The position numbers and the translations under genes are program-made. Positions 16,105 to 60,747 of a DNA stretch of 64,000 nucleotides are shown here, piece by piece. The notes beneath the pieces were generated by a model. It had not been told where the DNA came from. It saw nothing but the letters and a program-made list of their open reading frames with translations, and searched no databases. The stretch's first letter is position 1. Every line of letters starts with the position of its first letter. This stretch comes from Bigelowiella natans CCMP2755 (Eukaryota > Protista > Cercozoa): positions 1 to 64,000 of the forward strand of contig ADNK01001958.1 in the NCBI GenBank assembly GCA_000320545.1, given 5' to 3'.

Positions 16105-16653
16105 ATCAAATGCTACGAAGCACCTTAGCCATGACTTTAAACCAGCTCAATGAGTTTATTAACAATTAAATGAAGATGGTGTACATTCAAAAGTTCACTA
16201 TTATCTACCAATATCCGATTAGCGACAAATCAAACCAACGACTACCATAAATTCCATTGTGTGAGATCACCAAAGAGGTAACTGATGGTGTAATTGTCGT
16301 TGTTGTTAGTGTACATGCGTGTTGTGCGATCGATTGCTAGATGCATGCATCCGCATGTCTAGATGTGCTTTTCTCACCAGCTCACGCTACGAAACGAGGC
16401 GTAACATGGATTGTAGCAATCGAAAGTGAACAGTTACGTTGTTCCTGCGGAGCACAAACCAGCCATTTTGACTTTTGAATTGCATGCTTCGCACACGTAC
16501 ATGCATGCTGCGCGCCACCGAAGCTGTCATGGTAGCATGCATGGATTGACTGAGAAACGGTGGCACGGATCGCTGAGTGCTAGACAGTGCTGGGTGATCA
16601 TTGCATTGGAACACAATTTGCGCACGCTGGCACGGCTAGACGGCACAACTAGA

Positions 16654-16979
16654 TGTAGCGCGTACCACTACGCGGGCACAAGTCACGTGCGACAACAAAG
16701 GGGTTGTCGCGGATATAGAATATAGATAACGTAGATATTAATACAGCATAGGCACGTGGGTTCCGGCGGGACTCATGGCAGCACACCGGAAGTGTGCTGC
16801 CCCACGTGCGGCGGCATTCGCGAAAGCTTCGCGAATGATTACGCAGTGCACGATTTAATAAAAATATAATCTTTAATAAAAATAAACACAACTCTTCAAA
16901 AGGAAGCAAACGTGCCTTTCCCCCCCCCTGCCTACTTGTGCACGTAGCGCCTCGGCCTGTGAACACCTTACGCGCAACA
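16654..16979 (+). repeat. 5' LTR of copy 1
   Basis: TGTAGCGCGTA...TACGCGCAACA, an 11-bp terminal inverted repeat with 1 mismatch; appears identical to the other three LTRs; contains AATAAA motifs. Confidence 0.97.
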
Positions 16980-16984
16980 ACCTT

Positions 16985-17002
16985 TGGCTTCCACACACGG
17001 GA
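16985..17002 (+). other. Primer-binding site (tRNA identity unresolved)
   Basis: TGGCTTCCACACACGGGA, 5 nt after the LTR; the complement ends ..GGAAG-CCA like a tRNA 3' end. Same sequence at 55363-55380. Confidence 0.7.
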
Positions 17003-17018
17003 AACGATTTGACTAACA

Positions 17019-20000
17019 ATGTCACAGCAGCTAGAAGAACAGCAGGACTTTGGCTCGCAGGCCGTGCAAGGGCACGAGCAGAAACAGGAAAGGAAGGGCG
17101 ATACGGACGCTAAGGAAGGAGGAGGAACACCTCCACAGGCACCGCCGGGACCAGCACCCGGGATTAAGAAAGCAGATGCAGCAGCAGAGGCACTGGAGAA
17201 CTTCTACGAGGCGGACGACGAGGACGTGGCCGCCGAAAGCAAGAAGGTCGTAATGGCATTACGAGCCTTGCGACCCAGGGCGAGCAACTACGCCAAACTG
17301 AAAGTATCGATAGAATACAAGTATCAGACACATGATGTTTGGGCAGCTATCATGCAGGACATCATGGATTACGAAGCAGACTTACCTCCAGAGTGGGCAG
17401 CTTTGTTTAGGAACGACGGGGGTCTGGGCGCCTCGCGGGGGACGACCCAGAGCACCGTCAAGCAGCAGCAGCCGGTACAGCGGAACACCCAGTTCATGTC
17501 TGTTAAAACAGCACCGGTTATGATAACGAAATACAACGGGAAAAGAGGTGAGGCAAGGAGGTGGTGGAAGAACGCTAGGAGTATACTCTGCGACTTTACC
17601 CCTAACCCCACCGAAAACGACAAGCTCAAATGGCTAGCTATAATAAAGCAAGCCATGGACCTTTACGAGACAGGCAGGACCCGGATCAGGCAGCTAGAGA
17701 AAATACACACTACAGTTAGTGGGCTACGAGACGTTGAGGCGATAATGAAGGCTTTTGTAAATGAACAGGATGCTAACTCCCTACCCCAGGCTATTAGAAA
17801 ATACAGAGCAATGATGCAGCATGAGAGAGAACCTGTTAGAGACTTTGCCACGCGCTTCCAGGATATGATCGACGAACTACATGATTTTAATTACAACACA
17901 GGTGATGATCAGGCAAGGTTTGAAGAGTTCAAGTTAAAGATAAAGGAATCCACTTACGTTACGGAGAAAGGCTACACCACGATGGAGGCAGCAGTGCAGG
18001 CTATATCCCTACGCGAGCAGGAGCAGGACCGCAAGTTTACCAGCCCTAAGGTACCTGGCATAGGAAACATTAACGCTATTAAGCCGCAGCGAGACTGGTA
18101 CAAGGACAGGGAAGGTAACCGACGTTGCGGATACTGCTCACGTAAAGGGAAACACACCGCTAAAGACTGCAGAGACAGGAAAGAAGGACGACCCAGGATG
18201 ACGATCAGGCAGCTCAACGAACACTACGAGAAGTTAAAGAGAAAGAAAGGCAGAGGACAAGGATATAACAACAGCAAATGGCAAGGCAGCAACAACGGGA
18301 AGAACAATAAATATAAGAACAAAAAGCAGAACAGTATCAATGCTATACAGCAGCAGATAAACGGAATATTAGATCACCTTAAGCAGGCGCCGACGAAGAC
18401 AGCAGTACCAGCAACGCAGGACCAAGACAAGCCCATGACCCTAGACGACATAAAGAACTTAGGAGTATGCAACATTAATGACGAAGACGCTAACAGGACT
18501 ATCAAAGTTGCTATGACCAAGGTTAAAGTTAAAGACAGCTACGGAGACTACAAGAAACTACCTGCCCTTTGGGATAGTGGCAGCATGCCGAAGTCCTTCA
18601 TAAGCCTAAGCACAGTAAGAAGGTTAGGACTATTGGATCAAGTGACTAAGAAAGAACGTAAATATGCTCAAGCAGACGGAAGCTCTTCCATGAAGACCGT
18701 CGGTGAGCTAATGCTAAAGCTACAGATACCTGGCAGCGACGCGGAGACCCAAATCAAGACCCGAGTAGCCATGACTTTATCCATGGAACTACTCCTCGGA
18801 CAGGATGCCCTAGAAAAATTAGGGGGGATCATATCATTCTACAATCACAAGATATACTTTGCTAAGTTGCCAAAGAAGTCAGGCAGGACCATCAGCCAGA
18901 ACATGATACGGCTTGACGAGTGGACCTCTGAGTCAAGCGTTAATGCGTTAGAGTTTATGGACCTAGCGGACAACAAGCTACCTACACCTACCGAGCTACG
19001 GAAGAAGAACCCCGGCAAGACCATCCGACAGATAACGGAGCTACTGGACAAGACCCCCCCAGCTGATGATTGGGATATCGACAAAGGCAAAAAGTACATT
19101 AATAAAATATTAAACGAGAAGTACTCTGACATCACCAAGCCGACGACGAAGCCCTCCAGCAAGCTTACCCCAGTAAAGATCGAGCTAAAGAAGGGATACG
19201 AAGAGTGCATCATCAATGACCCAGAACATAGGCGACCGGAAGCGGACTGGGAAAAGATAGAGTGGCAGATCAATGAATGGGCAAAGGAAGGGAAGATAGA
19301 GCCAAGCAACTCACCATGGAACGTGAGACATGTGCTAGCTAAGAAACCTACTTACCCTTTCTTCCGCCTGGCGCACAACTTCATCCGCCACAACCGAGTA
19401 ATAAAGAGGATCCAGACACCTACACCAAGGATAGATGACGTTATTGAACACGTCATAGGATACAAATACTACTCTTCCCTAGATAAAAATGAATCATACA
19501 TGCAGACACCCATCCACAAAACCTCCCGCCCCATTACCGCGTTCTCCAGCAGGCACAGGAAGTGGCACTTCGTCGTATTCCCTTACGGCCTAAGCATATC
19601 AGGGGATGCGTTCAGTAGTCAGAACTACAGGGCATACACACATGATGGGATGGCGTCTGTGTTGTGGGTGTTTGTGTTTGTGTATGTGGATGATGACATA
19701 ATATGTACCAACACAGTCGTCGCTCAGATCTTCCTCCTGGAAAATATATTTATTAGGTTTGCACACTTCGGTTTTACTATTAGACTGCAGAAGTGTACAT
19801 TCCTAGCTACAAGAATCAAGTGGTGTGGATATTACCTGGAGCAAGGCCGCATCACCCCAAACCCCGAGAAAGTAGCAGCACTACAGCAAGCCCCTAAACC
19901 TAAGAATGCAAAGGAGTTAAAGTCATTCTTGCAGACTGCAGCTTGGATACTACGTAGGTTCTCCCCTACCTACGCTAGGACTGCAGCTGCTTTTACTACT

Positions 20001-21992
20001 GCTTACCGGAAGGAGAACTCTGTAGGCCTCAGCTTCGCTAAGGTGTGGGCCAAGGCTGGCCTTGATGCCCACTTCGATAACCTAATAAAGTTATGCAGCA
20101 ACACCCTATTGAATGCTAAGCTAGACACTACTAGACCAGCTACCCTATGGACAGACTGGTCTAAGCTAGGTATGGCTGCTGTACTTACCCAAGACCAGCA
20201 GATCATACGGGTGTGGGGCAGGGCCTGCACAGCAGCTGAGGCCAAGTACAGCCCTACAAAAGGAGAGTATAAAGCCATGACTGAGGCGCAGAGGAAACTA
20301 AGATACTACCTGCTGTCGGTGCCCAGCTTCACCTTAATGACTGACCACAAGCCCCTCCTAGGCATCGACCGCAAGCTCGAAGCGCCTAACGATGAGTATG
20401 CAGCTATGAGGGCGGACACGGAAGAGTTTAGGGACAAGAGGACAGTGGTCTACGCACCAGGAGACAAGCAGCTTGCTGACTATTTCAGCAGGCTGTTCGA
20501 AAAGAAAGTCCCTACCCAGGTCACCCCTATGGTTAACGCGATTACCTTCGAGGACGGCGACTTCCTGCCTGAGCCAGAGGAGCTCCAGCACCTTCAAGAA
20601 CACCTGGATAAATACAAACACAAGCATGAGGTACTTAGTGATAGGATATATGTATACACTAATAATGTTAGGCGTACCTACGTGCCACGGCGGACCAGGG
20701 GAGCCCTTCTCTTTACCGCCCATGGACCTGCACACGTAGGAGAAAACCATATCACTGCTCTACTCTACCATTACTACTGGCCCTACAAGCTAAAAGAGAT
20801 AAGGACATACCTGCGTGGCTGCAGGTGCTCCAGCTTGAAGGCGGCAGGCGTCGCCACCAAGGAGTCCAGCAAGAGCCGTGCATCTAAGAAAATCAAAGCA
20901 AGGAACTTCTTAGATATCGTGCAAATTGATGTTTATAAGTACGATGGCTATCACTACCTTACCTTCGTTGATGTGGCCACTGGAAAGTGCTGGGTTAAAA
21001 AGATTATCAAGGTCAACGTTGCTAAGAAGAACAAAGGCTTATATAAGCAGAGGCTTACTAACTGCTACCGTACCTGGGAGTCTGAGCTCCAGGCTATCCC
21101 TGATGAAGTTAGCATAAACAAGATACCAAAGAAGTTACATGTGGATAATGAGACCTCTCTTCTACAGCTACCACACCCTAATATTGATGCCTCACCTGTA
21201 TACTATGCCCAGTCCAACTCCAAGGTAGAGCGACTCCACCGCACCTTGGCCAACCTAAGCAGGATAAATAGCACCACACCAGACAAGATACAAGGGTTAG
21301 TAAACGACACCTTCACGTCTGGGGGAGGTATCAAGGATAAGGAGAGGGAAGAAGGCGACGACAACGACGACGATACCGAGAGCGAAGACGAGAAGGTCCC
21401 GTACGATGGCCGAGTTCTAAAGGAAGGACAGTATGTTAGGGCCAAGGTAAATCTGAGATCGAGAAATAAACAAGACCCCTTCTGGGGTGGCGTTGCAAAG
21501 GTTACCGAGAGGAAGGGGAGGAAGCAGTACTACATCTATGATGGGAACAGGGTCACCTTGCGCCACATCAGTCACCTAAAGAATTATGATATCGGTGAGA
21601 AGCTCCTAGAGGATGTTAAAGTAAACCCTACTGTGTGGGAGCGAGCAATGCCTTGTTTAGGACCCCGACCTAAGTTCGATGTGGAATATGGAAACAATAA
21701 GGTCAGGGTGAACGACGATTGGCGCATGAAGATTGTCTATCTAGGCTACCCTGGATTACGAAATATGGAGAGGGTAGCTATGAAAATAAAGGACGGAAAA
21801 TATCAGCTACTCTACCTAGCTGTTCCCGACTTACCCTTTGAGCACTGGTATAAGGTCCTGGGGGACCTTGATGCAGAGGGCTGGTATGGACACGAACCTA
21901 AGGACGAAGGTGAGTTCTGGGTAAGCGACAAAGGAGATAAGGTTAGAGAGGAATCTATTACCTGGTGGTTGGTGAAGTTCCGAAAGCGATGA
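17019..21992 (+). CDS. Gag-Pol polyprotein, 1657 aa, with C-terminal Dam-like extension
   Basis: Zn knuckle CGYC-x5-H-x4-C; protease ALWDSGS; RT YVDD; RNase H TDWS..E..TDHKPL..LADYFSR; integrase HGPAH..CRC, QID..VDN..KVER; SH3-like segment ending RHISHLKNY; then about 134 extra aa. Confidence 0.97.
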   Translation: MSQQLEEQQDFGSQAVQGHEQKQERKGDTDAKEGGGTPPQAPPGPAPGIKKADAAAEALENFYEADDEDVAAESKKVVMALRALRPRASNYAKLKVSIEYKYQTHDVWAAIMQDIMDYEADLPPEWAALFRNDGGLGASRGTTQSTVKQQQPVQRNTQFMSVKTAPVMITKYNGKRGEARRWWKNARSILCDFTPNPTENDKLKWLAIIKQAMDLYETGRTRIRQLEKIHTTVSGLRDVEAIMKAFVNEQDANSLPQAIRKYRAMMQHEREPVRDFATRFQDMIDELHDFNYNTGDDQARFEEFKLKIKESTYVTEKGYTTMEAAVQAISLREQEQDRKFTSPKVPGIGNINAIKPQRDWYKDREGNRRCGYCSRKGKHTAKDCRDRKEGRPRMTIRQLNEHYEKLKRKKGRGQGYNNSKWQGSNNGKNNKYKNKKQNSINAIQQQINGILDHLKQAPTKTAVPATQDQDKPMTLDDIKNLGVCNINDEDANRTIKVAMTKVKVKDSYGDYKKLPALWDSGSMPKSFISLSTVRRLGLLDQVTKKERKYAQADGSSSMKTVGELMLKLQIPGSDAETQIKTRVAMTLSMELLLGQDALEKLGGIISFYNHKIYFAKLPKKSGRTISQNMIRLDEWTSESSVNALEFMDLADNKLPTPTELRKKNPGKTIRQITELLDKTPPADDWDIDKGKKYINKILNEKYSDITKPTTKPSSKLTPVKIELKKGYEECIINDPEHRRPEADWEKIEWQINEWAKEGKIEPSNSPWNVRHVLAKKPTYPFFRLAHNFIRHNRVIKRIQTPTPRIDDVIEHVIGYKYYSSLDKNESYMQTPIHKTSRPITAFSSRHRKWHFVVFPYGLSISGDAFSSQNYRAYTHDGMASVLWVFVFVYVDDDIICTNTVVAQIFLLENIFIRFAHFGFTIRLQKCTFLATRIKWCGYYLEQGRITPNPEKVAALQQAPKPKNAKELKSFLQTAAWILRRFSPTYARTAAAFTTAYRKENSVGLSFAKVWAKAGLDAHFDNLIKLCSNTLLNAKLDTTRPATLWTDWSKLGMAAVLTQDQQIIRVWGRACTAAEAKYSPTKGEYKAMTEAQRKLRYYLLSVPSFTLMTDHKPLLGIDRKLEAPNDEYAAMRADTEEFRDKRTVVYAPGDKQLADYFSRLFEKKVPTQVTPMVNAITFEDGDFLPEPEELQHLQEHLDKYKHKHEVLSDRIYVYTNNVRRTYVPRRTRGALLFTAHGPAHVGENHITALLYHYYWPYKLKEIRTYLRGCRCSSLKAAGVATKESSKSRASKKIKARNFLDIVQIDVYKYDGYHYLTFVDVATGKCWVKKIIKVNVAKKNKGLYKQRLTNCYRTWESELQAIPDEVSINKIPKKLHVDNETSLLQLPHPNIDASPVYYAQSNSKVERLHRTLANLSRINSTTPDKIQGLVNDTFTSGGGIKDKEREEGDDNDDDTESEDEKVPYDGRVLKEGQYVRAKVNLRSRNKQDPFWGGVAKVTERKGRKQYYIYDGNRVTLRHISHLKNYDIGEKLLEDVKVNPTVWERAMPCLGPRPKFDVEYGNNKVRVNDDWRMKIVYLGYPGLRNMERVAMKIKDGKYQLLYLAVPDLPFEHWYKVLGDLDAEGWYGHEPKDEGEFWVSDKGDKVREESITWWLVKFRKR

Positions 21993-22035
21993 AGGTCTAA
22001 GGGAATAAGGAAGGAAGGAAGGAGCAACGTGACTT

Positions 22036-22043
22036 GGGGGAGG
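22036..22043 (+). other. Polypurine tract
   Basis: GGGGGAGG abutting the 3' LTR, preceded by a (GGAA)n purine run; same at 60414-60421. Confidence 0.85.
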
Positions 22044-22369
22044 TGTAGCGCGTACCACTACGCGGGCACAAGTCACGTGCGACAACAAAGGGGTTGTCGC
22101 GGATATAGAATATAGATAACGTAGATATTAATACAGCATAGGCACGTGGGTTCCGGCGGGACTCATGGCAGCACACCGGAAGTGTGCTGCCCCACGTGCG
22201 GCGGCATTCGCGAAAGCTTCGCGAATGATTACGCAGTGCACGATTTAATAAAAATATAATCTTTAATAAAAATAAACACAACTCTTCAAAAGGAAGCAAA
22301 CGTGCCTTTCCCCCCCCCTGCCTACTTGTGCACGTAGCGCCTCGGCCTGTGAACACCTTACGCGCAACA
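22044..22369 (+). repeat. 3' LTR of copy 1
   Basis: Matches 16654-16979 base for base as read by eye. Confidence 0.97.
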
Positions 22370-22407
22370 TAGACAACTGATGAACGATTTGTGCTGAAAA
22401 TCGACAT

Positions 22408-22438
<31 letters not shown>

Positions 22439-23137
22439 GCGTGTGCCAGTTGTGCATCTGCACTGTTGTGACTGATGCATGACGATGCAGCAGCGCGTGG
22501 AGGCTGACTTGAGTGGATGAACGATGAATGACGTCAGACGAGTGTGCACATCCAAGGTGCAACCACGGCTAAACTAGCAAAAGCATCCTCAAAAGTGCGA
22601 ATTTCCAGTGTCGCTTCTCCTGCTGCGGTGAGATCATGCAAACATTGAAAGGTTCCTTTTGCATCCGTCGACCACGAGCCACAACAGGTGCAATCACAGG
22701 CGGTGCATGACCAGCGGTGGACCAAGCTCAACTCAAGCTAGCAAGGACCAGTTGTCTGCCACGTTTTCTTTCGCTATGCAAACAATCACAAGCAACGCAT
22801 CAAATGATGAATGAATGAATGAAATGTTCCCATCGTGCAGCCGAAAGGATCATCAGAAATGCTTGGTCCGAAATGCTTGGTCCCACCTCCTGAATGATCT
22901 GCAGGGTCACATCGTGATGAATGTAGCGAGAATTACTAGGAACGTAGGTCAAATTGAGGTTACGACAAGACTAATTGATTGATTAAATAAAGGTGATGTA
23001 GAAAGTTCAAGATCCATGGGGATTTTGGGATGCGACATGCAAAAACAGCCGTCTCGATCTCAAAAGTGAGTTTGAAACATAAACAACACGTGCCCCCTGC
23101 TGCTCTACCACGTGCCAATTGTCGTCATCTGTACCAC

Positions 23138-27019: not shown

Positions 27020-28011
27020 ACGAATTTTAAGCCCGTATCTCCAAGCCTCTGCGTTTGATTGCTGTTTTTCTTCAGAGTTGGGGGGCGACACAGTGCACCG
27101 ATCGATGCCGTTTTGCTGGGGGGTGAGTTTTCTTGGTAATTTAGTACAAAATGGAGTGCATTTTGTGTGTACGACATCAGATAATCCATATCTCATGTTG
27201 TTACTCGCATTCTCTTCTTTCTCAAAGGTTTACGTAGTATAATTGTTGTTGTAGTTGTTGTTACGAGATGGTCGTTATACTATTCCGAATACTTCCTATT
27301 GCTTAAACACCAAATTCGGATGCATCGATTTTATTTTTGTTATTGTCGTTGTTTGCGAGAAAAGATAGTGATAGGAATACTTCGTATAAATATTTACAGA
27401 ATAGTAGAAGAAGGCGAAAGGCAGAATCCACTCGACGATTACCGACGATGATCATCGCATTGTTCTCACTTTGATTCCTCCTCCTCCTCCTCCTCCTCCT
27501 CTTCCTGCTTAATGGCGATCGTAAGAATCAAAAAGCCTGCTTCGCATTAGGAATTCCGTCGTTGTGTTCAAAGTCTGCTGCAACACTCACGGTTCATCAC
27601 TTTCACCTGATCACAACGGCATGATGTTACGGATCTGCTATCAGCACTAGCACTTGTAAACGGTCTGCTTTCCTTGACTCCGATGATGTCGATTTTGGGG
27701 CGAAGCTGCTGTAGTAAATTCTCTTGCTCGAAGCGAGTGTCCCATAAGAGTAATAATGGAAGGAGTTTTCGGCCGTCTACAGCATCCTGGTGAAGGCACG
27801 CGTGTAGATCAACATTTTCCTTCTTGATGCATGCCTTTTTTATCAAATGCCATTGCAATTCTTTTCTTTAAAGTTAGCTGTGCCATAATTCCCTCATAGG
27901 TTCCGGCCGTCTTCTGGCTTCGGAGTAGCCCCAGCTTTACTACTACTCCTCTCCACCCTTTTGACGACATGGTGGCGCTGTGTCTCCGTCGCTCCTGCAG
28001 ACCAACGCTTC

Positions 28012-29352
28012 ATGCTCTCTCGAAAGCCTGCAATTGATGGAAAACCAAGCATGCAACTACACCACAAAAGACTCTATCAAAAAATATTTGGAACTGGCAA
28101 GAAGACAAAGAGGGGGGGGCTCAAACCAGGGAAAAAGGAGCGACTCAAGCTAAGAGCAGCAGCAGAAAGCATAGAAAAAATAGAGAAACAACAAGCGCGT
28201 ACCAAGAAGAAAGCTCTTGAGGAGGAGATGCGACGTAAACTTACTCGTGAACTCCGTGCAGCTAACATGTCTCGTGTCAGGCTGCGCTCGCTTATCTCAC
28301 CTCGAGAAAGAGTGTTGATGCTAACCCGACGAGATCCTCAAACATATGGCAACATGCTTCAGAGGCACGCATCATCTAGGAACACAACGAAGTTGTCCCT
28401 AAAGCTTTTAAAAGAAGCAAAGCACCAATTAGATACTCAGAAACGAAAGGAAATTTACATGGAAATGAAAAGGGAGCAGCAGCAAGCAGGCTACGAGGAT
28501 GATCCTTATGAAATGAGTCTTGCGAAAGGGCCGATTCGTGATGATGACCATCATATGTTACTAACTCCACCAGAATTGGACGAAATTTTCAACATCACAA
28601 GATATAGGGAAAAAAGGGGAAAGAAAAGATTTGGAGGATCCATAAGACATACAAGAAAGAAAGAAACCATTGCGGATCGAGTCAAAGAAGCTCTCGCTCA
28701 AACCGATGATGCGAATAAAGATGAGATCAAAGGATTGAGTTCGGTCATGTACATAAGCCATATTCCCCCATATTTCCAAGAACGCGAAATGAAGGACTAC
28801 TTTGGGCAATTCGGCAAAATACTTCGGGTTCGCTTATCTCGCAATATGCGAACGAAAGCGTCAAGACATTATGGATTTATCGAATTTGAAAATCCAAAAG
28901 TTGCTCATGCAGTTGCGAAGGAGCATAGACGTAACTTATTTAAATTTTTAATATACATCTATATATTCTGAAACTACAATACTTTTTCCACTTTCATTTT
29001 GCTTCAAAATTTTCATTGTATACTCACGATTTCCCAATCATTTTAAAACAAAAATTCTATTGTCTCTATTCTTTTTGTAATTAGATGACTCTCATTTTTG
29101 TCCACCTTTTCAGTTTTCCATATTTCCAATACGAATCTCGTATGCAAAGTCATTCCCATGTCGGAATTACACCCGGATTGTATGAGCTCAAGGGCATTGA
29201 AAAGGGATTGTCAGAAGATAGATGCAGTGCGTCATAATGAAGCATCGGATCAAGTAGAAGTGCAAAGGAATAAAAAACGTATCGCCCAGCATGCTAAACG
29301 ACTTCGAAAAGTCAGGGAACTGTGTGGAGAATATAATTATGTGCAAGAATAA
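28012..29352 (+). CDS. Nucleolar RRM protein, NIFK/Nop15-like, with long basic N-terminus
   Basis: VMYISHIP..YFGQFGKILRVRLSRNMRTKASRHYGFIEFE..; after one intron LVCKVIP..LHPD. Start codon uncertain. Confidence 0.8.
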
Positions 29353-32974: not shown

Positions 32975-33517
32975 CTCCATTCCGGGAAGATCTTCACACG
33001 TGACTCCAACCACAATGTCTGTCACAGTCCCAAACGATTGCGCACGTCAACATGAAACACACGCTAGAACGTGAAGAACCCAGCGTGTTTTGCTTTGCTG
33101 GTGCGACGACAATCTCAGCGCTTGCCACTAGACCATTGCAGCGTTGCATGCTAGGTTGTGCTGATCAACACGACGATCACCCACACCGCTCACTGGCATG
33201 GTTGCTGCTGCAATGTGGACGTGTTCAAGTGTTGCAGACGTGCTTGCAACAACAGTGATGCCTGACATGATCGCTCACAGCTGACAGGCTCTTCATTCAT
33301 TGGAATAAGCTCTTCTTGTCAAAAGTGCAGGATCAGAAGTGGTCATCCACTCATCGATCTCACTCGTTCGATTTGTTTTGTTCGCAGCTAGCTAGCTAGC
33401 TAGCTAGTCTTCACATCGTGTTTGCATCTCAATTTTCGCCACATGGGAAAGAACCAACGCGCCATTTTCGCTTGCTTGCAGCATCAACGAGCACATCGCA
33501 ACTTGAGCATGGCAGGT
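32975..33517. other. TpA-depleted intergenic island
   Basis: 9 TA dinucleotides counted in about 540 bp; 8 are in CTAG, including a (GCTA)n run at 33387-33407. Confidence 0.85.
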
Positions 33518-33597
33518 TACTGGGTTAACACCAGAGATCGCCACAAAAATTGCCGGTGTCATTAGCAATTAAATCTAAAATCTCAAAGCATGTTGTT

Positions 33598-36099
33598 CTA
33601 GCTGCAGTAATATGCAGTTTGATTCTCAGGCGAAAAAGTGCGATCTCCGTGGCCATTGATGACATGGTCGACTGATCCTTGGCCATTGAGAAAGACGCTG
33701 AGCGGAGCTCTGAATCTTTCAACGAGATTCTCAGGGACATGAATACCTGATGTCACGTTCACGGGATAATCTCTGAAATAGTGGTAAACCCCCAGTGCCC
33801 ACGCATCATGGTCTTTTACATCATCTCCAACGCGATATGAAACGAACTGTTTTTCTCCATAGGACTGGTCAACATCATATGGAAATTCAGACTGGTAGAA
33901 GAAACACCTGAATCCAAACGCAGAAGGTTATGAAAAAGTTTTAACAAAAAAGAAAAAGGATGGGATCAACGTTTAAAATGTTGCTTTATACTATGTTTCT
34001 TCCTGGGATCTCTCTTTGTACTACCTGCCCCTCTCCCCAGTCCACAAGGTTAAATCGTTGAGAGTATGTTCAACTGCCAAGCCGTACATAGTGACGTCAT
34101 TTCCCTCAACAACCATCCCTGTTTCACAAGGATTCTTGCTGCCGTATACCTCCCCACCCACAGTGTGATCAGCTCGCCATAACCACAAGTTATCACCGAT
34201 CACGTGACCACTATTAATCTCAACCATCCGAGCGGCCTGCACTTCGTTCACATCTGGGCCTCCCACGCGAGCAAACACGTCATACAAGAACCCTGTAGTA
34301 GTAGTAGTAGTAGTAGAAGTAGTAGTAGTAGTAGCGTATAATATTGAAGTCGATTAATGGAGGCATTTACTACTGCTGGATCATAAGGCGTGAAATAAAA
34401 AGAGGACACATGATCACAACATAGTGTACAGCCACAACAAACAAACAACATTAAGGACGAGTAAGACAAGTAAACACAACTGCAATATTTATCTTCACAT
34501 TTTTTGGCACAAATACCAGGATTGGAGCTGTTGCCCTCATACGAACCTCCTCCCCATTGAAGCAGTGTGGGAGACGACTTTGGTCCTGCCTGCAGCAAGA
34601 CGCCAGCGATACGAACACCGTCCAGATCATCCGCGACGATAATGCATGGGTTCCCGTTGGCAGATATGAGTGTTGCCATTCCTAATCCGAGCAGCACCTG
34701 CCGTGAATGGCTGAATATGAAGAAGAGGAGAAGAACAATTGCCATCAATTTAATATGATTGCGAGAAGACTTCAAGGGATGCTATTGTGAGCAGTGTGTT
34801 GTGGCCATAATACGTTATCTTGAGAGGTGCCTCAAGAGAGTAAATAGCCGGCGAAAGAACAATGTGCAAACCCAGCGCCAGTTGAAAGTTGATCATATCA
34901 GCGGTGTCGTTTGGCTGCGTCACATAAACTTTGCTGAAATCGACACTCTCGACCAGATCTTCTTCTTTTTCTTCTGTCTTTTTTGATTGCCAACTTGGCC
35001 CAGATACATTTGTGCGCAATTGAGGAATATTTAGTGTAAACTTGCCCTCAGAGCTGATGGAGAGGAACGGCTTTTCTGCAATTACAGGCGTCTCTTCCAC
35101 AGATGTTATCGGACCCTCACTACTGTCTGTGGTGTGAATTGAATGTGGGCGGTATCGAGGTCGATAATCTATACGAGAGCTCATCCCTCGCACAGCAGCT
35201 TTGTTTTGGCTTTTCTCCTTCTTCAAGAACCGGGAAGAGTTACTACTTTGGGAGTTCTTTCCGCAGTGAGAGTTAGGAGCTCCTTCAACTCCGACGAATA
35301 CCATATTCCAATTTGCACCCTCCCATTTTGCGACTCTGGAATTTCTTGTGATAAATTGTTGTTGTGAGCCTGACTGCGCCACGCCGTCCACAAGAAGATC
35401 AGCTGCAAACCCCCCACTAGAAAACCCAGCATATGCGTATGGGGGGACATATTGGAAGAGGAGGAGATCGTTCACAATCCATGCCCTTCTCAAGGGAGCA
35501 GCCTGTGACACGGCCCAGATCATCCCATTGGCGCCGTTCCACCAGCCATGTGCAGAAGTCGACTTGAAATTCTCGGCCTTAAATTGGTATGTTAATCTTA
35601 TTCTTGGAAAATAATAGAAATTTTTAAACAATGATCACGAACCGCTCTCCAGAAGGTATCAAGCGCTCCTACACTAGGATTGTAATTAGCCTCCTCGCAG
35701 TGTACGCCCTTGTCTCCTGAAAACACTACGTCTTGAGGTTTCAATCCTAAACCTAAGACTTGAGTGTAATAGCCTACTGGAACATCAACTTTGTACTCCC
35801 CCGGAGTAAACATAAGTACAAATCTCTTCTCGCTAAATTGTCCATTTTCGGGAGGGTTGTGGCCACCATTTTGCAAATAAATCTGATTCATATACAATTT
35901 GCTACTTAAGCTGCTGCAAAAAAATGATCATTCCTTCTACAACCTTGTTGACAGTATCTTGAATGTTCTCCGTCGTTGGGTCGAAGATAAACACGCTATC
36001 TGGCCAGTTGGGAGGATTTGGCTGTATTGAAGTACCCCCCACTCCTTGCAACCAGAAAAGCAGCGATAGCAGAGGGGTGGTGGCAGTAAACGAGGTCAT
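33598..36099 (-). CDS. Secreted GH55 exo-beta-1,3-glucanase (bacterial-type GH55)
   Basis: Signal peptide; VGYYTQVLGLG, ALDTFWRA-AENF, WAVSQAAPLRR, SGSQQQF, WLWRADH, GLAVEH, FYQSEFPYD; stop TAG at 33598-33600. Confidence 0.85.
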
Positions 36100-44830: not shown

Positions 44831-45349
44831 CAAAGCAGGTGCAGCGGCAGTAAAAGCGTAGACAAGGAAGGTGATAATATTTAATTGCAAAGCCAGAAAC
44901 CACAACCGCTGTCTGGCGGTGTAGAGACGGGTAGATCAAGAGAATATCTTCCTTTTGTTATAATTTGGTTGTTCTTATCTCCTTCTTCCTCTCCTCTCTC
45001 TTCTTCGGCTGCTCCCAAAGAATGTTTGTCGGTAGACTAGCACTTACGCACCAGCTTATTCAGAACACGTCACCACCACCTCTACGCGTTGTGATCGTCG
45101 CTTCTCACGCGTTAGAGCCTGTGAATCATCGTTTCACACGTGTAGTGGGAGAAGAAGGAGGGAGGGCATGATGATCGCATCTCCATCAGTGAAGACCCAT
45201 GCGATCGATGATGTATCGTTTTTTATTTATCATTTAGACTTTTTATTTGCGATGTTTGTGGGTGTCATGTTGTTCATGCATGAAGATCTTGGATTGTAAT
45301 TTTTATTAGGATGTTTTTCGCATGAATTTAAGACCAAAATAGTTCTTAC

Positions 45350-46367
45350 TCAGGATGAATTTTGCCCTGTCCGCTGTGCGCGGCCTGCAGTCTGCCCCGC
45401 TAGTTTGCGCTAGTCAGTCCTCACTGAAGCCAGTTCGACGAGGCAATGCATTTCGCACATTGCAAGTGTCTTGTCACACTTTGGAAGTGTAGTTTTTCAT
45501 CATTGTTCCCATTGTTCTCATTGTTCTGGATGACCGATCGAGCAACAAGTGTTGTGAAACGAGCCCCTCATTTTCCATGATGATCCAGTTGATTGAGGGG
45601 GGTGTGGATGAGTTTGCACATCCCACGATCCTTTCAACCGCTCAATTGGAATCACTTCATTCATTCATTTGTTCACGGATGAGTGTGTCACACACTGGCA
45701 CACACCACACACCACACACGATGGAGGAGCTTGTGCAGCGTGCGAGGCGCGGTCGCCATCGCGAAGTGTGGTGACCACCGACACGGTGTGCAATGTGCAT
45801 GACACGTGATGTGCAGTGCATGCACCGTGTGCACTGTGTCCATTGCAGTGCACAGGGTGCCAAAAAATCTCCAGCTCGATGACTTTGCTGGAGGCGTTGT
45901 GGTGCCACCCAGTTGCGCCCGGCACGTTCGTTTCCGTGGCCTTTGTCTGACTTCCAGCAAATCCACACCCCCACACACTTGACATGTCATTCTCTGGTTC
46001 TTCCCGCTGACTCAAAGCCTGACAAGGCGTTGCACTCCCACCAGCTGAAAAACTGAAGGAAGTGACGTCCGAACCTTTTGATTCTCAGTCCAACACGCCA
46101 AACATTGCAGACACGCAATGTCACATGTGTGTCCATCATGAACTTGACGCGTGGCGGCGTTTCCAAATCCCAAGCTAGCAAGGTGACTCACCCAAACCTC
46201 TGGACCTGCTGGTGCCACGTGTTGCTGTGCTTTGCGATGTCGCAGCTGCAAAGGTGCACTCTGGACATGCTAGCATGCATGAAGACACGAAGCATGCTCG
46301 CGCTCGCGTTGGCCCAGCTAGCCAGCGTGTGGTGCATTGCATGTGCATGATGACGACTGCTTGGCGG
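45350..46367. other. Strongest TpA-depleted island
   Basis: No TA between 45492 and 46175; 6 TA in about 1 kb (5 CTAG, 1 GTAG); rich in TG, CA and CG. Confidence 0.9.
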
Positions 46368-53643: not shown

Positions 53644-54030
53644 CGTACTTTCCGTTGTTGCGCGCTTCTGCGCTCGTTGCGACGACCGGATGAAACAAGG
53701 GAAAACAACTGTCTGTTTTCGGTAGTTTTTATGTCGTATATGCAAAACGGCCTGTAAATGATCCCAATTTTCACAGTCTGACTATCTTCGAGTCTCCCGG
53801 AAGCGGCTCCAATGTTCTCGAGAAGGATCTGGATGATCGCAACAGCCGTAGGCCATTCAGAAGGTACGTCTCATAAAAAATGATGTCGCATTGGATGACG
53901 ACCGATGTGAATAGGAACAAACGCCGGTCGTTTTCCTTTGGAGACTAGTACATTCTTCTGTATTTTTAGGAATAGTAACTTGGACCGTCACCATCACCAT
54001 CACGGTTGATGAGGGAGATCTGACTAGATC

Positions 54031-54316: not shown

Positions 54317-54598
54317 GCATCGGTGACACACAAAAGCTGAATAGATACTGAGGCATTCCCTACAAAAGGGGCCTTTACTATTGCTGTCATTGACGTCATC
54401 CTGGACATTTCACAAGTTTCCTAAAGGATGTGTAGTACGCACTTGTTAATTTTTTTGTTTTTAATTTCAAAGTTGACAATCTGACATCTTTTGGACAAAG
54501 CACAGTTTGCCTGCCGCAGATCGATAGTCGAACAACAATGCACATCCCTATACATTCAACAAGGATGACACACGCAGTAGACTGTGCACGGAGATTCA

Positions 54599-54734
54599 CT
54601 GTGCACGCTAAATTCAGCAGGCGGACGAAGGCAGGTCATATTGTGCATGCACGCACGCAGCAAAAAGCGAGCAGGACAAGTTGAACGACAACGGACATCC
54701 CTTCTTTCGCGCCTGCTGAATTCAGCGGGCACAG
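54599..54734. mobile_element. MITE-like relic, 136 bp, with 25-bp terminal inverted repeats
   Basis: ctgtgcacgctaaattcagcaggcg (54599-54623) vs reverse complement of 54710-54734, ctgtgcccgctgaattcagcaggcg: 23/25 match. Confidence 0.6.
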
Positions 54735-55031
54735 CGACTCTGCTTTGCAAAGCCTGCATGCGTATCCCATGACACATTGTCAAATTTGGTTGTGCACACA
54801 ATGACGCATGATGTGTGATGAATGAATGCGTTGCTGAGCATTTGATCAGATGCCAATAACGTTAGCTACGTTGTGAAAATTCCATCATGAGATTTCTTCT
54901 GCACACCGCTCCTTTGCCAGCGATCTCATCGTCATCCAGACTCAAAAAGATGGCTTCATGAAAACACGCAAAACAAGAAAACTCATGTTCCATCTTTCAG
55001 TGCACTCTGATCATTTCAGGGCACAATGCAC

Positions 55032-55357
55032 TGTAGCGCGTACCACTACGCGGGCACAAGTCACGTGCGACAACAAAGGGGTTGTCGCGGATATAGAATA
55101 TAGATAACGTAGATATTAATACAGCATAGGCACGTGGGTTCCGGCGGGACTCATGGCAGCACACCGGAAGTGTGCTGCCCCACGTGCGGCGGCATTCGCG
55201 AAAGCTTCGCGAATGATTACGCAGTGCACGATTTAATAAAAATATAATCTTTAATAAAAATAAACACAACTCTTCAAAAGGAAGCAAACGTGCCTTTCCC
55301 CCCCCCTGCCTACTTGTGCACGTAGCGCCTCGGCCTGTGAACACCTTACGCGCAACA
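55032..55357 (+). repeat. 5' LTR of copy 2
   Basis: Same 326-bp sequence as the copy 1 LTRs. Confidence 0.97.
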
Positions 55358-55396
55358 ACCTTTGGCTTCCACACACGGGAAACGATTTGACTAACA

Positions 55397-58300
55397 ATGT
55401 CACAGCAGCTAGAAGAACAGCAGGACTTTGGCTCGCAGGCCGTGCAAGGGCACGAGCAGAAACAGGAAAGGAAGGGCGATACGGACGCTAAGGAAGGAGG
55501 AGGAACACCTCCACAGGCACCGCCGGGACCAGCACCCGGGATTAAGAAAGCAGATGCAGCAGCAGAGGCACTGGAGAACTTCTACGAGGCGGACGACGAG
55601 GACGTGGCCGCCGAAAGCAAGAAGGTCGTAATGGCATTACGAGCCTTGCGACCCAGGGCGAGCAACTACGCCAAACTGAAAGTATCGATAGAATACAAGT
55701 ATCAGACACATGATGTTTGGGCAGCTATCATGCAGGACATCATGGATTACGAAGCAGACTTACCTCCAGAGTGGGCAGCTTTGTTTAGGAACGACGGGGG
55801 TCTGGGCGCCTCGCGGGGGACGACCCAGAGCACCGTCAAGCAGCAGCAGCCGGTACAGCGGAACACCCAGTTCATGTCTGTTAAAACAGCACCGGTTATG
55901 ATAACGAAATACAACGGGAAAAGAGGTGAGGCAAGGAGGTGGTGGAAGAACGCTAGGAGTATACTCTGCGACTTTACCCCTAACCCCACCGAAAACGACA
56001 AGCTCAAATGGCTAGCTATAATAAAGCAAGCCATGGACCTTTACGAGACAGGCAGGACCCGGATCAGGCAGCTAGAGAAAATACACACTACAGTTAGTGG
56101 GCTACGAGACGTTGAGGCGATAATGAAGGCTTTTGTAAATGAACAGGATGCTAACTCCCTACCCCAGGCTATTAGAAAATACAGAGCAATGATGCAGCAT
56201 GAGAGAGAACCTGTTAGAGACTTTGCCACGCGCTTCCAGGATATGATCGACGAACTACATGATTTTAATTACAACACAGGTGATGATCAGGCAAGGTTTG
56301 AAGAGTTCAAGTTAAAGATAAAGGAATCCACTTACGTTACGGAGAAAGGCTACACCACGATGGAGGCAGCAGTGCAGGCTATATCCCTACGCGAGCAGGA
56401 GCAGGACCGCAAGTTTACCAGCCCTAAGGTACCTGGCATAGGAAACATTAACGCTATTAAGCCGCAGCGAGACTGGTACAAGGACAGGGAAGGTAACCGA
56501 CGTTGCGGATACTGCTCACGTAAAGGGAAACACACCGCTAAAGACTGCAGAGACAGGAAAGAAGGACGACCCAGGATGACGATCAGGCAGCTCAACGAAC
56601 ACTACGAGAAGTTAAAGAGAAAGAAAGGCAGAGGACAAGGATATAACAACAGCAAATGGCAAGGCAGCAACAACGGGAAGAACAATAAATATAAGAACAA
56701 AAAGCAGAACAGTATCAATGCTATACAGCAGCAGATAAACGGAATATTAGATCACCTTAAGCAGGCGCCGACGAAGACAGCAGTACCAGCAACGCAGGAC
56801 CAAGACAAGCCCATGACCCTAGACGACATAAAGAACTTAGGAGTATGCAACATTAATGACGAAGACGCTAACAGGACTATCAAAGTTGCTATGACCAAGG
56901 TTAAAGTTAAAGACAGCTACGGAGACTACAAGAAACTACCTGCCCTTTGGGATAGTGGCAGCATGCCGAAGTCCTTCATAAGCCTAAGCACAGTAAGAAG
57001 GTTAGGACTATTGGATCAAGTGACTAAGAAAGAACGTAAATATGCTCAAGCAGACGGAAGCTCTTCCATGAAGACCGTCGGTGAGCTAATGCTAAAGCTA
57101 CAGATACCTGGCAGCGACGCGGAGACCCAAATCAAGACCCGAGTAGCCATGACTTTATCCATGGAACTACTCCTCGGACAGGATGCCCTAGAAAAATTAG
57201 GGGGGATCATATCATTCTACAATCACAAGATATACTTTGCTAAGTTGCCAAAGAAGTCAGGCAGGACCATCAGCCAGAACATGATACGGCTTGACGAGTG
57301 GACCTCTGAGTCAAGCGTTAATGCGTTAGAGTTTATGGACCTAGCGGACAACAAGCTACCTACACCTACCGAGCTACGGAAGAAGAACCCCGGCAAGACC
57401 ATCCGACAGATAACGGAGCTACTGGACAAGACCCCCCCAGCTGATGATTGGGATATCGACAAAGGCAAAAAGTACATTAATAAAATATTAAACGAGAAGT
57501 ACTCTGACATCACCAAGCCGACGACGAAGCCCTCCAGCAAGCTTACCCCAGTAAAGATCGAGCTAAAGAAGGGATACGAAGAGTGCATCATCAATGACCC
57601 AGAACATAGGCGACCGGAAGCGGACTGGGAAAAGATAGAGTGGCAGATCAATGAATGGGCAAAGGAAGGGAAGATAGAGCCAAGCAACTCACCATGGAAC
57701 GTGAGACATGTGCTAGCTAAGATACCTACTTACCCTTTCTTCCGCCTGGCGCACAACTTCATCCGCCACAACCGAGTAATAAAGAGGATCCAGACACCTA
57801 CACCAAGGATAGATGACGTTATTGAACACGTCATAGGATACAAATACTACTCTTCCCTAGATAAAAATGAATCATACATGCAGACACCCATCCACAAAAC
57901 CTCCCGCCCCATTACCGCGTTCTCCAGCAGGCACAGGAAGTGGCACTTCGTCGTATTCCCTTACGGCCTAAGCATATCAGGGGATGCGTTCAGTAGTCAG
58001 AACTACAGGGCATACACACATGATGGGATGGCGTCTGTGTTGTGGGTGTTTGTGTTTGTGTATGTGGATGATGACATAATATGTACCAACACAGTCGTCG
58101 CTCAGATCTTCCTCCTGGAAAATATATTTATTAGGTTTGCACACTTCGGTTTTACTATTAGACTGCAGAAGTGTACATTCCTAGCTACAAGAATCAAGTG
58201 GTGTGGATATTACCTGGAGCAAGGCCGCATCACCCCAAACCCCGAGAAAGTAGCAGCACTACAGCAAGCCCCTAAACCTAAGAATGCAAAGGAGTTAAAG

Positions 58301-60370
58301 TCATTCTTGCAGACTGCAGCTTGGATACTACGTAGGTTCTCCCCTACCTACGCTAGGACTGCAGCTGCTTTTACTACTGCTTACCGGAAGGAGAACTCTG
58401 TAGGCCTCAGCTTCGCTAAGGTGTGGGCCAAGGCTGGCCTTGATGCCCACTTCGATAACCTAATAAAGTTATGCAGCAACACCCTATTGAATGCTAAGCT
58501 AGACACTACTAGACCAGCTACCCTATGGACAGACTGGTCTAAGCTAGGTATGGCTGCTGTACTTACCCAAGACCAGCAGATCATACGGGTGTGGGGCAGG
58601 GCCTGCACAGCAGCTGAGGCCAAGTACAGCCCTACAAAAGGAGAGTATAAAGCCATGACTGAGGCGCAGAGGAAACTAAGATACTACCTGCTGTCGGTGC
58701 CCAGCTTCACCTTAATGACTGACCACAAGCCCCTCCTAGGCATCGACCGCAAGCTCGAAGCGCCTAACGATGAGTATGCAGCTATGAGGGCGGACACGGA
58801 AGAGTTTAGGGACAAGAGGACAGTGGTCTACGCACCAGGAGACAAGCAGCTTGCTGACTATTTCAGCAGGCTGTTCGAAAAGAAAGTCCCTACCCAGGTC
58901 ACCCCTATGGTTAACGCGATTACCTTCGAGGACGGCGACTTCCTGCCTGAGCCAGAGGAGCTCCAGCACCTTCAAGAACACCTGGATAAATACAAACACA
59001 AGCATGAGGTACTTAGTGATAGGATATATGTATACACTAATAATGTTAGGCGTACCTACGTGCCACGGCGGACCAGGGGAGCCCTTCTCTTTACCGCCCA
59101 TGGACCTGCACACGTAGGAGAAAACCATATCACTGCTCTACTCTACCATTACTACTGGCCCTACAAGCTAAAAGAGATAAGGACATACCTGCGTGGCTGC
59201 AGGTGCTCCAGCTTGAAGGCGGCAGGCGTCGCCACCAAGGAGTCCAGCAAGAGCCGTGCATCTAAGAAAATCAAAGCAAGGAACTTCTTAGATATCGTGC
59301 AAATTGATGTTTATAAGTACGATGGCTATCACTACCTTACCTTCGTTGATGTGGCCACTGGAAAGTGCTGGGTTAAAAAGATTATCAAGGTCAACGTTGC
59401 TAAGAAGAACAAAGGCTTATATAAGCAGAGGCTTACTAACTGCTACCGTACCTGGGAGTCTGAGCTCCAGGCTATCCCTGATGAAGTTAGCATAAACAAG
59501 ATACCAAAGAAGTTACATGTGGATAATGAGACCTCTCTTCTACAGCTACCACACCCTAATATTGATGCCTCACCTGTATACTATGCCCAGTCCAACTCCA
59601 AGGTAGAGCGACTCCACCGCACCTTGGCCAACCTAAGCAGGATAAATAGCACCACACCAGACAAGATACAAGGGTTAGTAAACGACACCTTCACGTCTGG
59701 GGGAGGTATCAAGGATAAGGAGAGGGAAGAAGGCGACGACAACGACGACGATACCGAGAGCGAAGACGAGAAGGTCCCGTACGATGGCCGAGTTCTAAAG
59801 GAAGGACAGTATGTTAGGGCCAAGGTAAATCTGAGATCGAGAAATAAACAAGACCCCTTCTGGGGTGGCGTTGCAAAGGTTACCGAGAGGAAGGGGAGGA
59901 AGCAGTACTACATCTATGATGGGAACAGGGTCACCTTGCGCCACATCAGTCACCTAAAGAATTATGATATCGGTGAGAAGCTCCTAGAGGATGTTAAAGT
60001 AAACCCTACTGTGTGGGAGCGAGCAATGCCTTGTTTAGGACCCCGACCTAAGTTCGATGTGGAATATGGAAACAATAAGGTCAGGGTGAACGACGATTGG
60101 CGCATGAAGATTGTCTATCTAGGCTACCCTGGATTACGAAATATGGAGAGGGTAGCTATGAAAATAAAGGACGGAAAATATCAGCTACTCTACCTAGCTG
60201 TTCCCGACTTACCCTTTGAGCACTGGTATAAGGTCCTGGGGGACCTTGATGCAGAGGGCTGGTATGGACACGAACCTAAGGACGAAGGTGAGTTCTGGGT
60301 AAGCGACAAAGGAGATAAGGTTAGAGAGGAATCTATTACCTGGTGGTTGGTGAAGTTCCGAAAGCGATGA
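55397..60370 (+). CDS. Gag-Pol polyprotein, 1657 aa (copy 2)
   Basis: Same as copy 1 except VLAKIPTY vs VLAKKPTY (T57723 vs A19345). Confidence 0.97.
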   Translation: MSQQLEEQQDFGSQAVQGHEQKQERKGDTDAKEGGGTPPQAPPGPAPGIKKADAAAEALENFYEADDEDVAAESKKVVMALRALRPRASNYAKLKVSIEYKYQTHDVWAAIMQDIMDYEADLPPEWAALFRNDGGLGASRGTTQSTVKQQQPVQRNTQFMSVKTAPVMITKYNGKRGEARRWWKNARSILCDFTPNPTENDKLKWLAIIKQAMDLYETGRTRIRQLEKIHTTVSGLRDVEAIMKAFVNEQDANSLPQAIRKYRAMMQHEREPVRDFATRFQDMIDELHDFNYNTGDDQARFEEFKLKIKESTYVTEKGYTTMEAAVQAISLREQEQDRKFTSPKVPGIGNINAIKPQRDWYKDREGNRRCGYCSRKGKHTAKDCRDRKEGRPRMTIRQLNEHYEKLKRKKGRGQGYNNSKWQGSNNGKNNKYKNKKQNSINAIQQQINGILDHLKQAPTKTAVPATQDQDKPMTLDDIKNLGVCNINDEDANRTIKVAMTKVKVKDSYGDYKKLPALWDSGSMPKSFISLSTVRRLGLLDQVTKKERKYAQADGSSSMKTVGELMLKLQIPGSDAETQIKTRVAMTLSMELLLGQDALEKLGGIISFYNHKIYFAKLPKKSGRTISQNMIRLDEWTSESSVNALEFMDLADNKLPTPTELRKKNPGKTIRQITELLDKTPPADDWDIDKGKKYINKILNEKYSDITKPTTKPSSKLTPVKIELKKGYEECIINDPEHRRPEADWEKIEWQINEWAKEGKIEPSNSPWNVRHVLAKIPTYPFFRLAHNFIRHNRVIKRIQTPTPRIDDVIEHVIGYKYYSSLDKNESYMQTPIHKTSRPITAFSSRHRKWHFVVFPYGLSISGDAFSSQNYRAYTHDGMASVLWVFVFVYVDDDIICTNTVVAQIFLLENIFIRFAHFGFTIRLQKCTFLATRIKWCGYYLEQGRITPNPEKVAALQQAPKPKNAKELKSFLQTAAWILRRFSPTYARTAAAFTTAYRKENSVGLSFAKVWAKAGLDAHFDNLIKLCSNTLLNAKLDTTRPATLWTDWSKLGMAAVLTQDQQIIRVWGRACTAAEAKYSPTKGEYKAMTEAQRKLRYYLLSVPSFTLMTDHKPLLGIDRKLEAPNDEYAAMRADTEEFRDKRTVVYAPGDKQLADYFSRLFEKKVPTQVTPMVNAITFEDGDFLPEPEELQHLQEHLDKYKHKHEVLSDRIYVYTNNVRRTYVPRRTRGALLFTAHGPAHVGENHITALLYHYYWPYKLKEIRTYLRGCRCSSLKAAGVATKESSKSRASKKIKARNFLDIVQIDVYKYDGYHYLTFVDVATGKCWVKKIIKVNVAKKNKGLYKQRLTNCYRTWESELQAIPDEVSINKIPKKLHVDNETSLLQLPHPNIDASPVYYAQSNSKVERLHRTLANLSRINSTTPDKIQGLVNDTFTSGGGIKDKEREEGDDNDDDTESEDEKVPYDGRVLKEGQYVRAKVNLRSRNKQDPFWGGVAKVTERKGRKQYYIYDGNRVTLRHISHLKNYDIGEKLLEDVKVNPTVWERAMPCLGPRPKFDVEYGNNKVRVNDDWRMKIVYLGYPGLRNMERVAMKIKDGKYQLLYLAVPDLPFEHWYKVLGDLDAEGWYGHEPKDEGEFWVSDKGDKVREESITWWLVKFRKR

Positions 60371-60421
60371 AGGTCTAAGGGAATAAGGAAGGAAGGAAGG
60401 AGCAACGTGACTTGGGGGAGG

Positions 60422-60747
60422 TGTAGCGCGTACCACTACGCGGGCACAAGTCACGTGCGACAACAAAGGGGTTGTCGCGGATATAGAATATAGATAACGT
60501 AGATATTAATACAGCATAGGCACGTGGGTTCCGGCGGGACTCATGGCAGCACACCGGAAGTGTGCTGCCCCACGTGCGGCGGCATTCGCGAAAGCTTCGC
60601 GAATGATTACGCAGTGCACGATTTAATAAAAATATAATCTTTAATAAAAATAAACACAACTCTTCAAAAGGAAGCAAACGTGCCTTTCCCCCCCCCTGCC
60701 TACTTGTGCACGTAGCGCCTCGGCCTGTGAACACCTTACGCGCAACA
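60422..60747 (+). repeat. 3' LTR of copy 2
   Basis: Same 326-bp sequence. Confidence 0.97.

Follow-up and report, generated by a model that had tools for sequence, protein, structure and literature searches.

Positions 1 to 64,000 of contig ADNK01001958.1 from Bigelowiella natans CCMP2755 (assembly GCA_000320545.1), here called the window, carry two copies of a 5,716-bp long terminal repeat (LTR) element with Ty3/gypsy domain order, at 16654-22369 and 55032-60747. The Gag-Pol polyprotein of this element continues past its integrase into a 134-residue tail, whose predicted fold is that of the N6-adenine methyltransferases and in which the catalytic motif of such enzymes is lost. The tail and the parts of the element around it are arranged as follows.

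16654..16979, plus strand: 5′ LTR of copy 1 (326 bp, TG...CA), with the TAGA duplication immediately before it
16985..16994, plus strand: likely primer-binding site, beginning TGG (from sequence)
17019..21992, plus strand: Gag-Pol open reading frame, 1,657 amino acids, with gag, protease (DSGS), reverse transcriptase (YVDD), RNase H, integrase, SH3-like segment and Dam-fold tail (Pfam and motifs)
20532..21587, plus strand: integrase, with zinc-binding part, D-D-E core and, from about 21399, a C-terminal SH3-like segment (motif places; Pfam Integrase_H2C2 at E 0.0022, short of its cut-off)
21588..21992, plus strand: 134-residue predicted Dam/PCIF1-fold domain (model, structure and profile matches)
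21675..21689, plus strand: FDVEY, probable remnant of the strand 1/motif I region (alignment and model)
21744..21755, plus strand: GYPG (tail residues 53-56), where the catalytic NPPY would stand (profile alignment)
22036..22043, plus strand: polypurine tract adjoining the 3′ LTR (from sequence)
22044..22369, plus strand: 3′ LTR of copy 1, followed by TAGA (LTR comparison)
55032..60747, plus strand: copy 2 of the element, one base unlike copy 1, with the duplication GCAC
59966..60370, plus strand: Dam-fold tail of copy 2, identical to that of copy 1 (sequence comparison)

The two copies differ by a single base, at 19345, and each encodes Gag-Pol as one open reading frame. The LTRs were identical in all three pairings compared, and the target-site duplications (TAGA and GCAC) are 4 bp long. 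Pfam finds the reverse transcriptase (RT) and RNase H above the cut-off and the protease, the integrase zinc domain and gag below it; the order of protease, RT, RNase H and DDE integrase follows from the places of their motifs. The last integrase segment is labelled SH3-like on its sequence pattern and because ribosomal L21 matches it weakly. In the integrase core (20919-21230), which has a CxC zinc motif, the second Asp and the Glu are separated by just 28 residues, as counted by eye. The integrase is divergent, yet apparently working, judging by the fresh target-site duplications. At the likely primer-binding site, one contig of the DNA run X14 departs from the element at 16985-16994 into tRNA-like letters, hinting at the primer tRNA. 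Homologs of the element are JGI Bigna1 models at 99-100% identity (8 of 9 in one search, 16 of 16 in another), which indicates a young, multi-copy family. A search of viral contigs for the LTR pattern returned no match.

The tail is encoded by 21588-21989, followed by TGA at 21990-21992, in frame with the start at 17019 and directly after the residues RHISHLKNY. Its length, its position behind the SH3-like segment and the presence of the same tail in copy 2 agree with a first-pass annotation of this DNA, which had proposed a degenerate Dam-like domain at the end of the polyprotein.

Predicted fold of the tail and its lost catalytic motif

A phmmer search with the tail returned 47 proteins at E ≤ 0.001 among 1.84 billion representatives. 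An integrase/SH3-like segment lies upstream of the tail in all 23 matches that have at least 37 upstream residues, four of which had helped to build the profile. These two results show that the tail is not a chance sequence. Its identity to six relatives (29-36%) is like that of the protease (32-39%), with the RT, RNase H and integrase core at 41-60%, which argues that the tail is conserved and not decaying. Pro80, Trp87 and Trp126 are invariant across the 38 aligned tails of alignment A1, which leaves out near-identical Bigelowiella models as well as P0023, P0053 and P0058.

AlphaFold2, given the 38-row alignment, modelled the tail with a predicted local distance difference test (pLDDT) score of 96.5 and a predicted template modelling (pTM) score of 0.90; a fold predicted from the single sequence (pLDDT 39) was discarded. 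Foldseek against the viral structures of BFVD gave 14 matches at E ≤ 0.001 (best 2.1e-6, probability 1.00) with template modelling scores of 0.58-0.66. Six of these are named methyltransferases (five of them N6-adenine), one is uncharacterised and seven are unnamed. The top solved-structure match is human PCIF1/CAPAM (Z 8.1, root-mean-square deviation 3.5, 122 residues aligned). A wide search of 48,161 chains found zebrafish PCIF1/CAPAM at Z 7.0, and nearly all of its top 50 chains are methyltransferases or relatives of them. PCIF1 as the top solved match fits the grouping of DIRS domains and PCIF1 in one clade (Group-2 clade 1) by Iyer et al., 2016 (PMC4738411). Profile comparison with hhalign pairs the tail with 15 phage Dams at a score of 31.4 (probability 54%, E 1.3e-4), where the best of 100 column shuffles reached 21.0 and the reversed control 15.6. 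Against three chlorophyte-type domains from Dam-carrying LTR elements (DAM-LTRs, discussed below) the score was likewise 31.4 (probability 62%), with a maximum of 21.3 in 60 shuffles. In the Atlas, the relative P0026 adjoins a cluster bearing PF05869 (14% of members) at 0.91.

Sequence-level searches recover little of this. Searched by sequence against Pfam, PHROGs and the PDB, the tail (P0003) gave nothing meaningful, and P0003 itself had no usable match in the Atlas. PF05869 (Dam) matches one of the 38 tail rows, over the motif region, at 14.4 bits and E 0.032, where the gathering cut-off is 28.1 bits; P0003 has no match and does not reach it. A tblastn search of phages with the relative P0025 found no match at E 10, and a search of the genome contigs with T1 Dam found no loci. 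Some structural results also weigh against the assignment: Foldseek against the PDB gave no match at E ≤ 0.001 (its top rows are mostly methyltransferases), Z values of 7-8 are on their own middling, and the hhalign probabilities are moderate, cover residues 13-100 only and fall to a low score in global mode. With both sides counted, the tail, as modelled, almost certainly has the N6-adenine methyltransferase fold of the Dam/DIRS/PCIF1 type, as the first-pass annotation had it. A chromodomain was rejected on the absence of a Pfam chromo match and on the confident alpha/beta methyltransferase model, and an envelope (env) protein was likewise rejected on the fold. The first-pass proposal thereby withstands its own refuting condition, which was the lack of a methyltransferase match or a better match to a chromo, env or other fold.

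In N6-adenine methylating enzymes the first residue of the catalytic motif is catalytic and the last stacks on the adenine (PMC8287941). The canonical form, [DNS]PP[YFW], occurs in none of the 34 complete motifs among the tails, which comprise GYPG (16), GFPG (3), GCPG (3), GHPG (2), GRPG (2), AYPG (2) and six singletons. The nearest to canonical are two of the singletons, SFPL and SFPF, in P0054 and P0057; the intact NPPF/Y copies that had been suggested as worth seeking were not among these motifs. Gly occupies the last, base-stacking position in 31 of 35 rows. The earlier statement that NPPF/Y had been replaced holds for the loss of the motif, while the register shifts one residue to the right, from LGYP to GYPG. 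The accompanying proposal that DLFA had become DVEY is plausible, with an unsettled register in which the motif I acid is either Asp31 or Glu33; Asp31 is kept in 26 of 32 rows and Asn36 in 23 of 33. Motif IV lies 22 residues from Asp31, or 20 from Glu33, in the tail; its distance from the Asp of motif I is 35 in two DAM-LTR domains and 33-38 in 14 of 15 phage Dams. The segment on the S-adenosylmethionine (SAM) side is thus 11-18 residues shorter, in keeping with the shortened SAM-binding loop noted at first pass. METTL14, in which both key motif residues are gone, is described as inactive (PMC8287941). With both residues gone here too, adenine methylation by the tail is unlikely, and a loss of catalysis is probable, as had been anticipated.

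Insertion sites and the role of the tail

B. natans is reported to have a mutator that converts TpA to CpA or TpG on viral, and probably transposon, DNA (bioRxiv 10.64898/2026.01.13.699255). In P0016, a decayed B. natans copy, single TpA transitions (to CpA/TpG) explain 16 of the 18 amino-acid changes, and Tyr is absent from P0022 (1,243 residues) and P0030 (670 residues); from these we conclude that the mutator strikes this family. The relatives P0048, P0050 and P0058 (metagenome) and P0023 and P0072 (transcriptome set) contain no more than one Tyr and show Y-to-C/H changes, suggesting that other hosts of the clade may likewise mutate TpA. The two young copies have an observed/expected TpA ratio of 1.13. 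Their four 300-bp flanks have ratios of 0.55, 0.16, 0.17 and 0.23, corresponding to the 16th, 1st, 1st and 3rd percentile of 345 windows, and TpA-intact copies between such flanks imply that both insertions landed in old mutated patches. Two of the flanks, given here as 500-bp segments, are the following.

22370..22869, no strand: TpA-depleted, CpA/TpG-rich flank of copy 1 (TpA observed/expected 0.16)
54532..55031, no strand: TpA-depleted left flank of copy 2 (TpA observed/expected 0.26; 0.17 in the nearest 300 bp)

TpA-depleted patches also lie at 33001-34000, 45001-46000 and 54001-55000 (observed/expected 0.33-0.45), with CpA/TpG raised, which is the reported signature of the mutator.

The best reading of the tail, which we hold tentatively and at less than even chances, is that of a dead fold serving as a non-enzymatic tether on the integrase. 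The ancestor of the clade would have captured the domain from a DIRS-type or other DAM-carrying element, the candidate donors. The tail would stay joined to the mature integrase (about 485 residues), contact a protein or chromatin partner instead of a flipped base, and bias integration toward silenced, already-mutated foreign DNA, as the chromodomain does in chromoviruses (introduction of bioRxiv 10.64898/2026.05.21.726589). The motif [IV]NA[IL] occurs at residues 351, 440, 641 and 1172, at Gag/Pol junctions (0.08 expected), the last coinciding with the integrase start, and does not occur after 1172. Read as protease sites, these positions leave the tail on the integrase, and the protease probably makes no cut between the two. 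The net charge of the tail, with a median of -5 and a negative value in 22 of 31 rows (phage Dams, median -1), weakly favours a protein partner over DNA. That the tail has a protein or chromatin partner and a role in targeting is, to us, close to an even call, shaded toward no. The steering of integration, which the first-pass annotation had also raised, has one weak hint in its favour in the TpA-depleted flanks.

Several observations count against the tether. The cleavage sites are read from motif places alone, and because phage Dams are slightly acidic too, charge discriminates little. The insertion-site hint comes from two sites and was spotted in hindsight, and it weakens for one flank on a scale of 500-1000 bp (38th and 61st percentile). 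The depleted flanks could also reflect the survival of insertions in junk DNA, or selection against insertions in genes.

A dead domain might instead serve the particle or intasome structurally or in handling nucleic acid, holding the element's RNA or cDNA or stabilising the integrase, with no part in target choice. In favour of such a role are the domain's place behind the integrase in 23 of 23 testable relatives and the short Asp-to-Glu spacing of the integrase core in this clade, a core that might depend on a partner. It also has precedents, since Iyer et al. suggest that DIRS domains without activity may bind transcripts of their own element (PMC4738411) and METTL14 is described as a dead scaffold that aids RNA binding (PMC8287941). 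The mostly acidic surface speaks against it, however, and the TpA-depleted flanks would then be down to chance or selection; we regard this role as unlikely, with an appreciable chance of being correct. The reading put forward at first pass, in which the domain recognises a modified base (6mA, that is N6-methyladenine, a deamination product or modified T) in the target DNA and so steers integration directly, is distinctly unlikely. It draws on the retained adenine-methyltransferase fold, on Phe110-Trp111, an aromatic pair that the global alignment places opposite the Phe conserved in the GR[LI]xF stretch of phage Dams, and on the host's reported mutation of TpA, an adenine-centred process (bioRxiv 10.64898/2026.01.13.699255). 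The Gly at the stacking position weakens it, as the equivalent change in METTL16, F187G, abolishes RNA binding (PMC8287941). Reading of a flipped base through the usual pocket is therefore also unlikely, though another aromatic could substitute, as proposed for adenine stacking in RlmJ (PMC8287941). The acidity of the domain, including its loop 101-110, is a further difficulty. The host has AMT1 = 0 and AMT6/7 = 0 in a proteome-search table (PMC12695648, supplement table 1), and the literature found reports no modified base in B. natans.

The captured fold might also be a reader of a mark or protein of the host's TpA anti-invader system, steering integration into flagged patches or shielding new copies, which we consider a long shot. 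We see very little chance that the domain is a counter-defence, decoy or shield that guards new copies from the TpA mutator. Both copies do retain a TpA ratio of 1.13 amid depleted flanks, and the metagenome relatives P0048, P0050 and P0058 contain almost no Tyr, as though TpA were mutated in their hosts as well; yet youth alone accounts for the intact copies, and protection would be plainly partial in view of the TpA-type changes in P0016 (16 of 18) and the Tyr-free P0022 and P0030. An enzyme with an altered substrate or a non-canonical active site is an idea to which we give hardly any credence. The GYPG motif is fixed and not drifting, Asp31 and Asn36 are largely kept, and two distant members have the near-canonical SFP[LF], but Gly replaces both key residues of the motif, the segment on the SAM side is shortened, and even NPP-bearing domains of DAM-carrying transposable elements gave no 6mA in Escherichia coli (bioRxiv 10.64898/2026.05.21.726589).

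Antisense transcripts and surroundings of the copies

Copy 1 is covered by at least 15 joints with CT..AC ends, all of them minus-strand GT-AG introns of 56-165 bases, between 17298 and 21834. All 15 listed joints occur in run X16, 13 in X15, 8 in the metatranscriptome X17 and none in the DNA run X14; a further 291 joints were counted beyond those listed, and the runs were compared as contigs, which do not tell genomic copies apart. Their presence in three RNA or likely-RNA runs, with none listed in the DNA run, indicates that the element is transcribed antisense and spliced along its length, including the tail, which is crossed by one of the listed introns.

21670..21834, minus strand: GT-AG intron of the antisense transcript, across the tail domain

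Stops in all frames fall in 10 of the 16 segments between listed introns, making a protein-coding transcript unlikely. On its sequence the transcript is probably non-coding, and it might supply double-stranded RNA for silencing.

Both insertion sites contain the 7-mer GGCACAA, 6-12 bases left of the LTR (16642-16648 and 55020-55026), which may be a target preference or chance. A repeat of 140-230 bp, at 80-91% identity, flanks copy 2 (54020-54220 and 61768-61995) and may belong to an older element into which copy 2 inserted. Host genes in the window encode a member of the photolyase/cryptochrome family (48326-50539), an S1-domain protein (51438-53297) and an RNA-recognition motif (RRM) protein (27889-28971).

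Relation to known elements

In chromoviruses, an accessory domain, the chromodomain, is found at the integrase C-terminus. The Bigelowiella element likewise has an accessory domain there, which differs in being a predicted alpha/beta methyltransferase fold and not a chromodomain. The first-pass annotation had taken Dam-like domains to be foreign to LTR elements with a DDE integrase, a view that does not stand, as Dam-like domains in Ty3/gypsy elements have been described as DAM-LTRs in five lineages (chlorophyte, chloro-ochrophyte, ichthyosporean, Pyropia and Euglena) (Fernandez-Moreno et al., bioRxiv 10.64898/2026.05.21.726589). In that preprint, the domains are detected by hidden Markov models (HMMs) at E<1e-5, mostly keep Asn-Pro-Pro and show no activity in E. 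coli. The hosts mostly bear AMT1 (9 of 13), raised 6mA on the copies is a tendency, and the advantage proposed for DAM-LTRs is the writing or attracting of 6mA in AMT1 hosts.

The Bigelowiella element is an LTR element of non-DIRS type whose polyprotein includes a Dam-like domain, and it falls within the definition of a DAM-LTR. It has in common with DAM-LTRs the Ty3/gypsy domain order, the DDE integrase and the Dam-like domain in the polyprotein, and, like the ichthyosporean lineage, it has no chromodomain. Unlike the DAM-LTRs, its family is missed by Pfam (PF05869 touches a single row of 38, at E 0.032) and lacks Asn-Pro-Pro, and unlike most of them its host is listed without AMT1 (PMC12695648), so that the 6mA-exploitation model of the preprint fits poorly. 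In an RT-RNase H tree of 49 rows, each covering at least 250 residues (P0039 was dropped and P0070 used in its place), nine rows of the clade sit on a branch of length 1.83 with 100/100 support, in a tree that holds no named references or outgroup and carries a warning of long-branch joining. Eight of the nine carry a whole or partial tail, and L058 stops where the tail would start. The clade lies apart from L126, P0067 and P0068, a chlorophyte-type DAM-chromovirus group and the sole such group sampled. L126:4396-8411 is a gypsy element, chromodomain-type by sequence pattern, in which a separate Dam-like domain (WLCPPV) precedes the protease; it resembles the preprint's chlorophyte DAM-chromovirus group and served as a comparison.

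With phage Dam (PF05869; T1, HP2 and lambdoid), which supplied the best Foldseek matches, the tail has in common the fold and motif order, at 10-14% identity, without NPPY, with the shorter segment between motifs I and IV and below the Pfam cut-off. The methyltransferase domains of DIRS1 type and the PCIF1 clade belong to the same fold family, and such retroelement (DIRS) domains have already been proposed to be inactive (PMC4738411). DIRS elements use a tyrosine recombinase, have inverted or split repeats and make no target duplication, whereas the Bigelowiella element has a DDE integrase, direct LTRs and target-site duplications; a DIRS identity is excluded by these repeats and duplications and by the lack of a recombinase match in P0001. 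A Kuafuortervirus identity was likewise rejected, as the RT motif is YVDD and not the [IVL]ADD described for that group (PMC11673190), and the LTRs are direct, with duplications.

The literature searches found no description of this Bigelowiella lineage, and the main text of the DAM-LTR preprint contains no mention of Bigelowiella, Rhizaria or Cercozoa, though its supplements may list Bigelowiella. The architecture class is already in the preprint; what is new here is a long-branch clade invisible to Pfam, a fixed and conserved dead motif, and a host listed without AMT1. HMM screens consequently undercount DAM-carrying LTR elements. A very young family, apparently successful in a host listed without AMT1, that combines a conserved fold with a fixed non-catalytic motif argues that the domain can be retained for a job other than methylation. 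B. natans is culturable, with many near-identical copies and a reported TpA mutator, and the question of targeting can be answered from the existing assembly. Should the tail prove to read the TpA system, it would stand as the first module of a transposon to be directed at this pathway, and it could serve as a ready probe for the mark involved.

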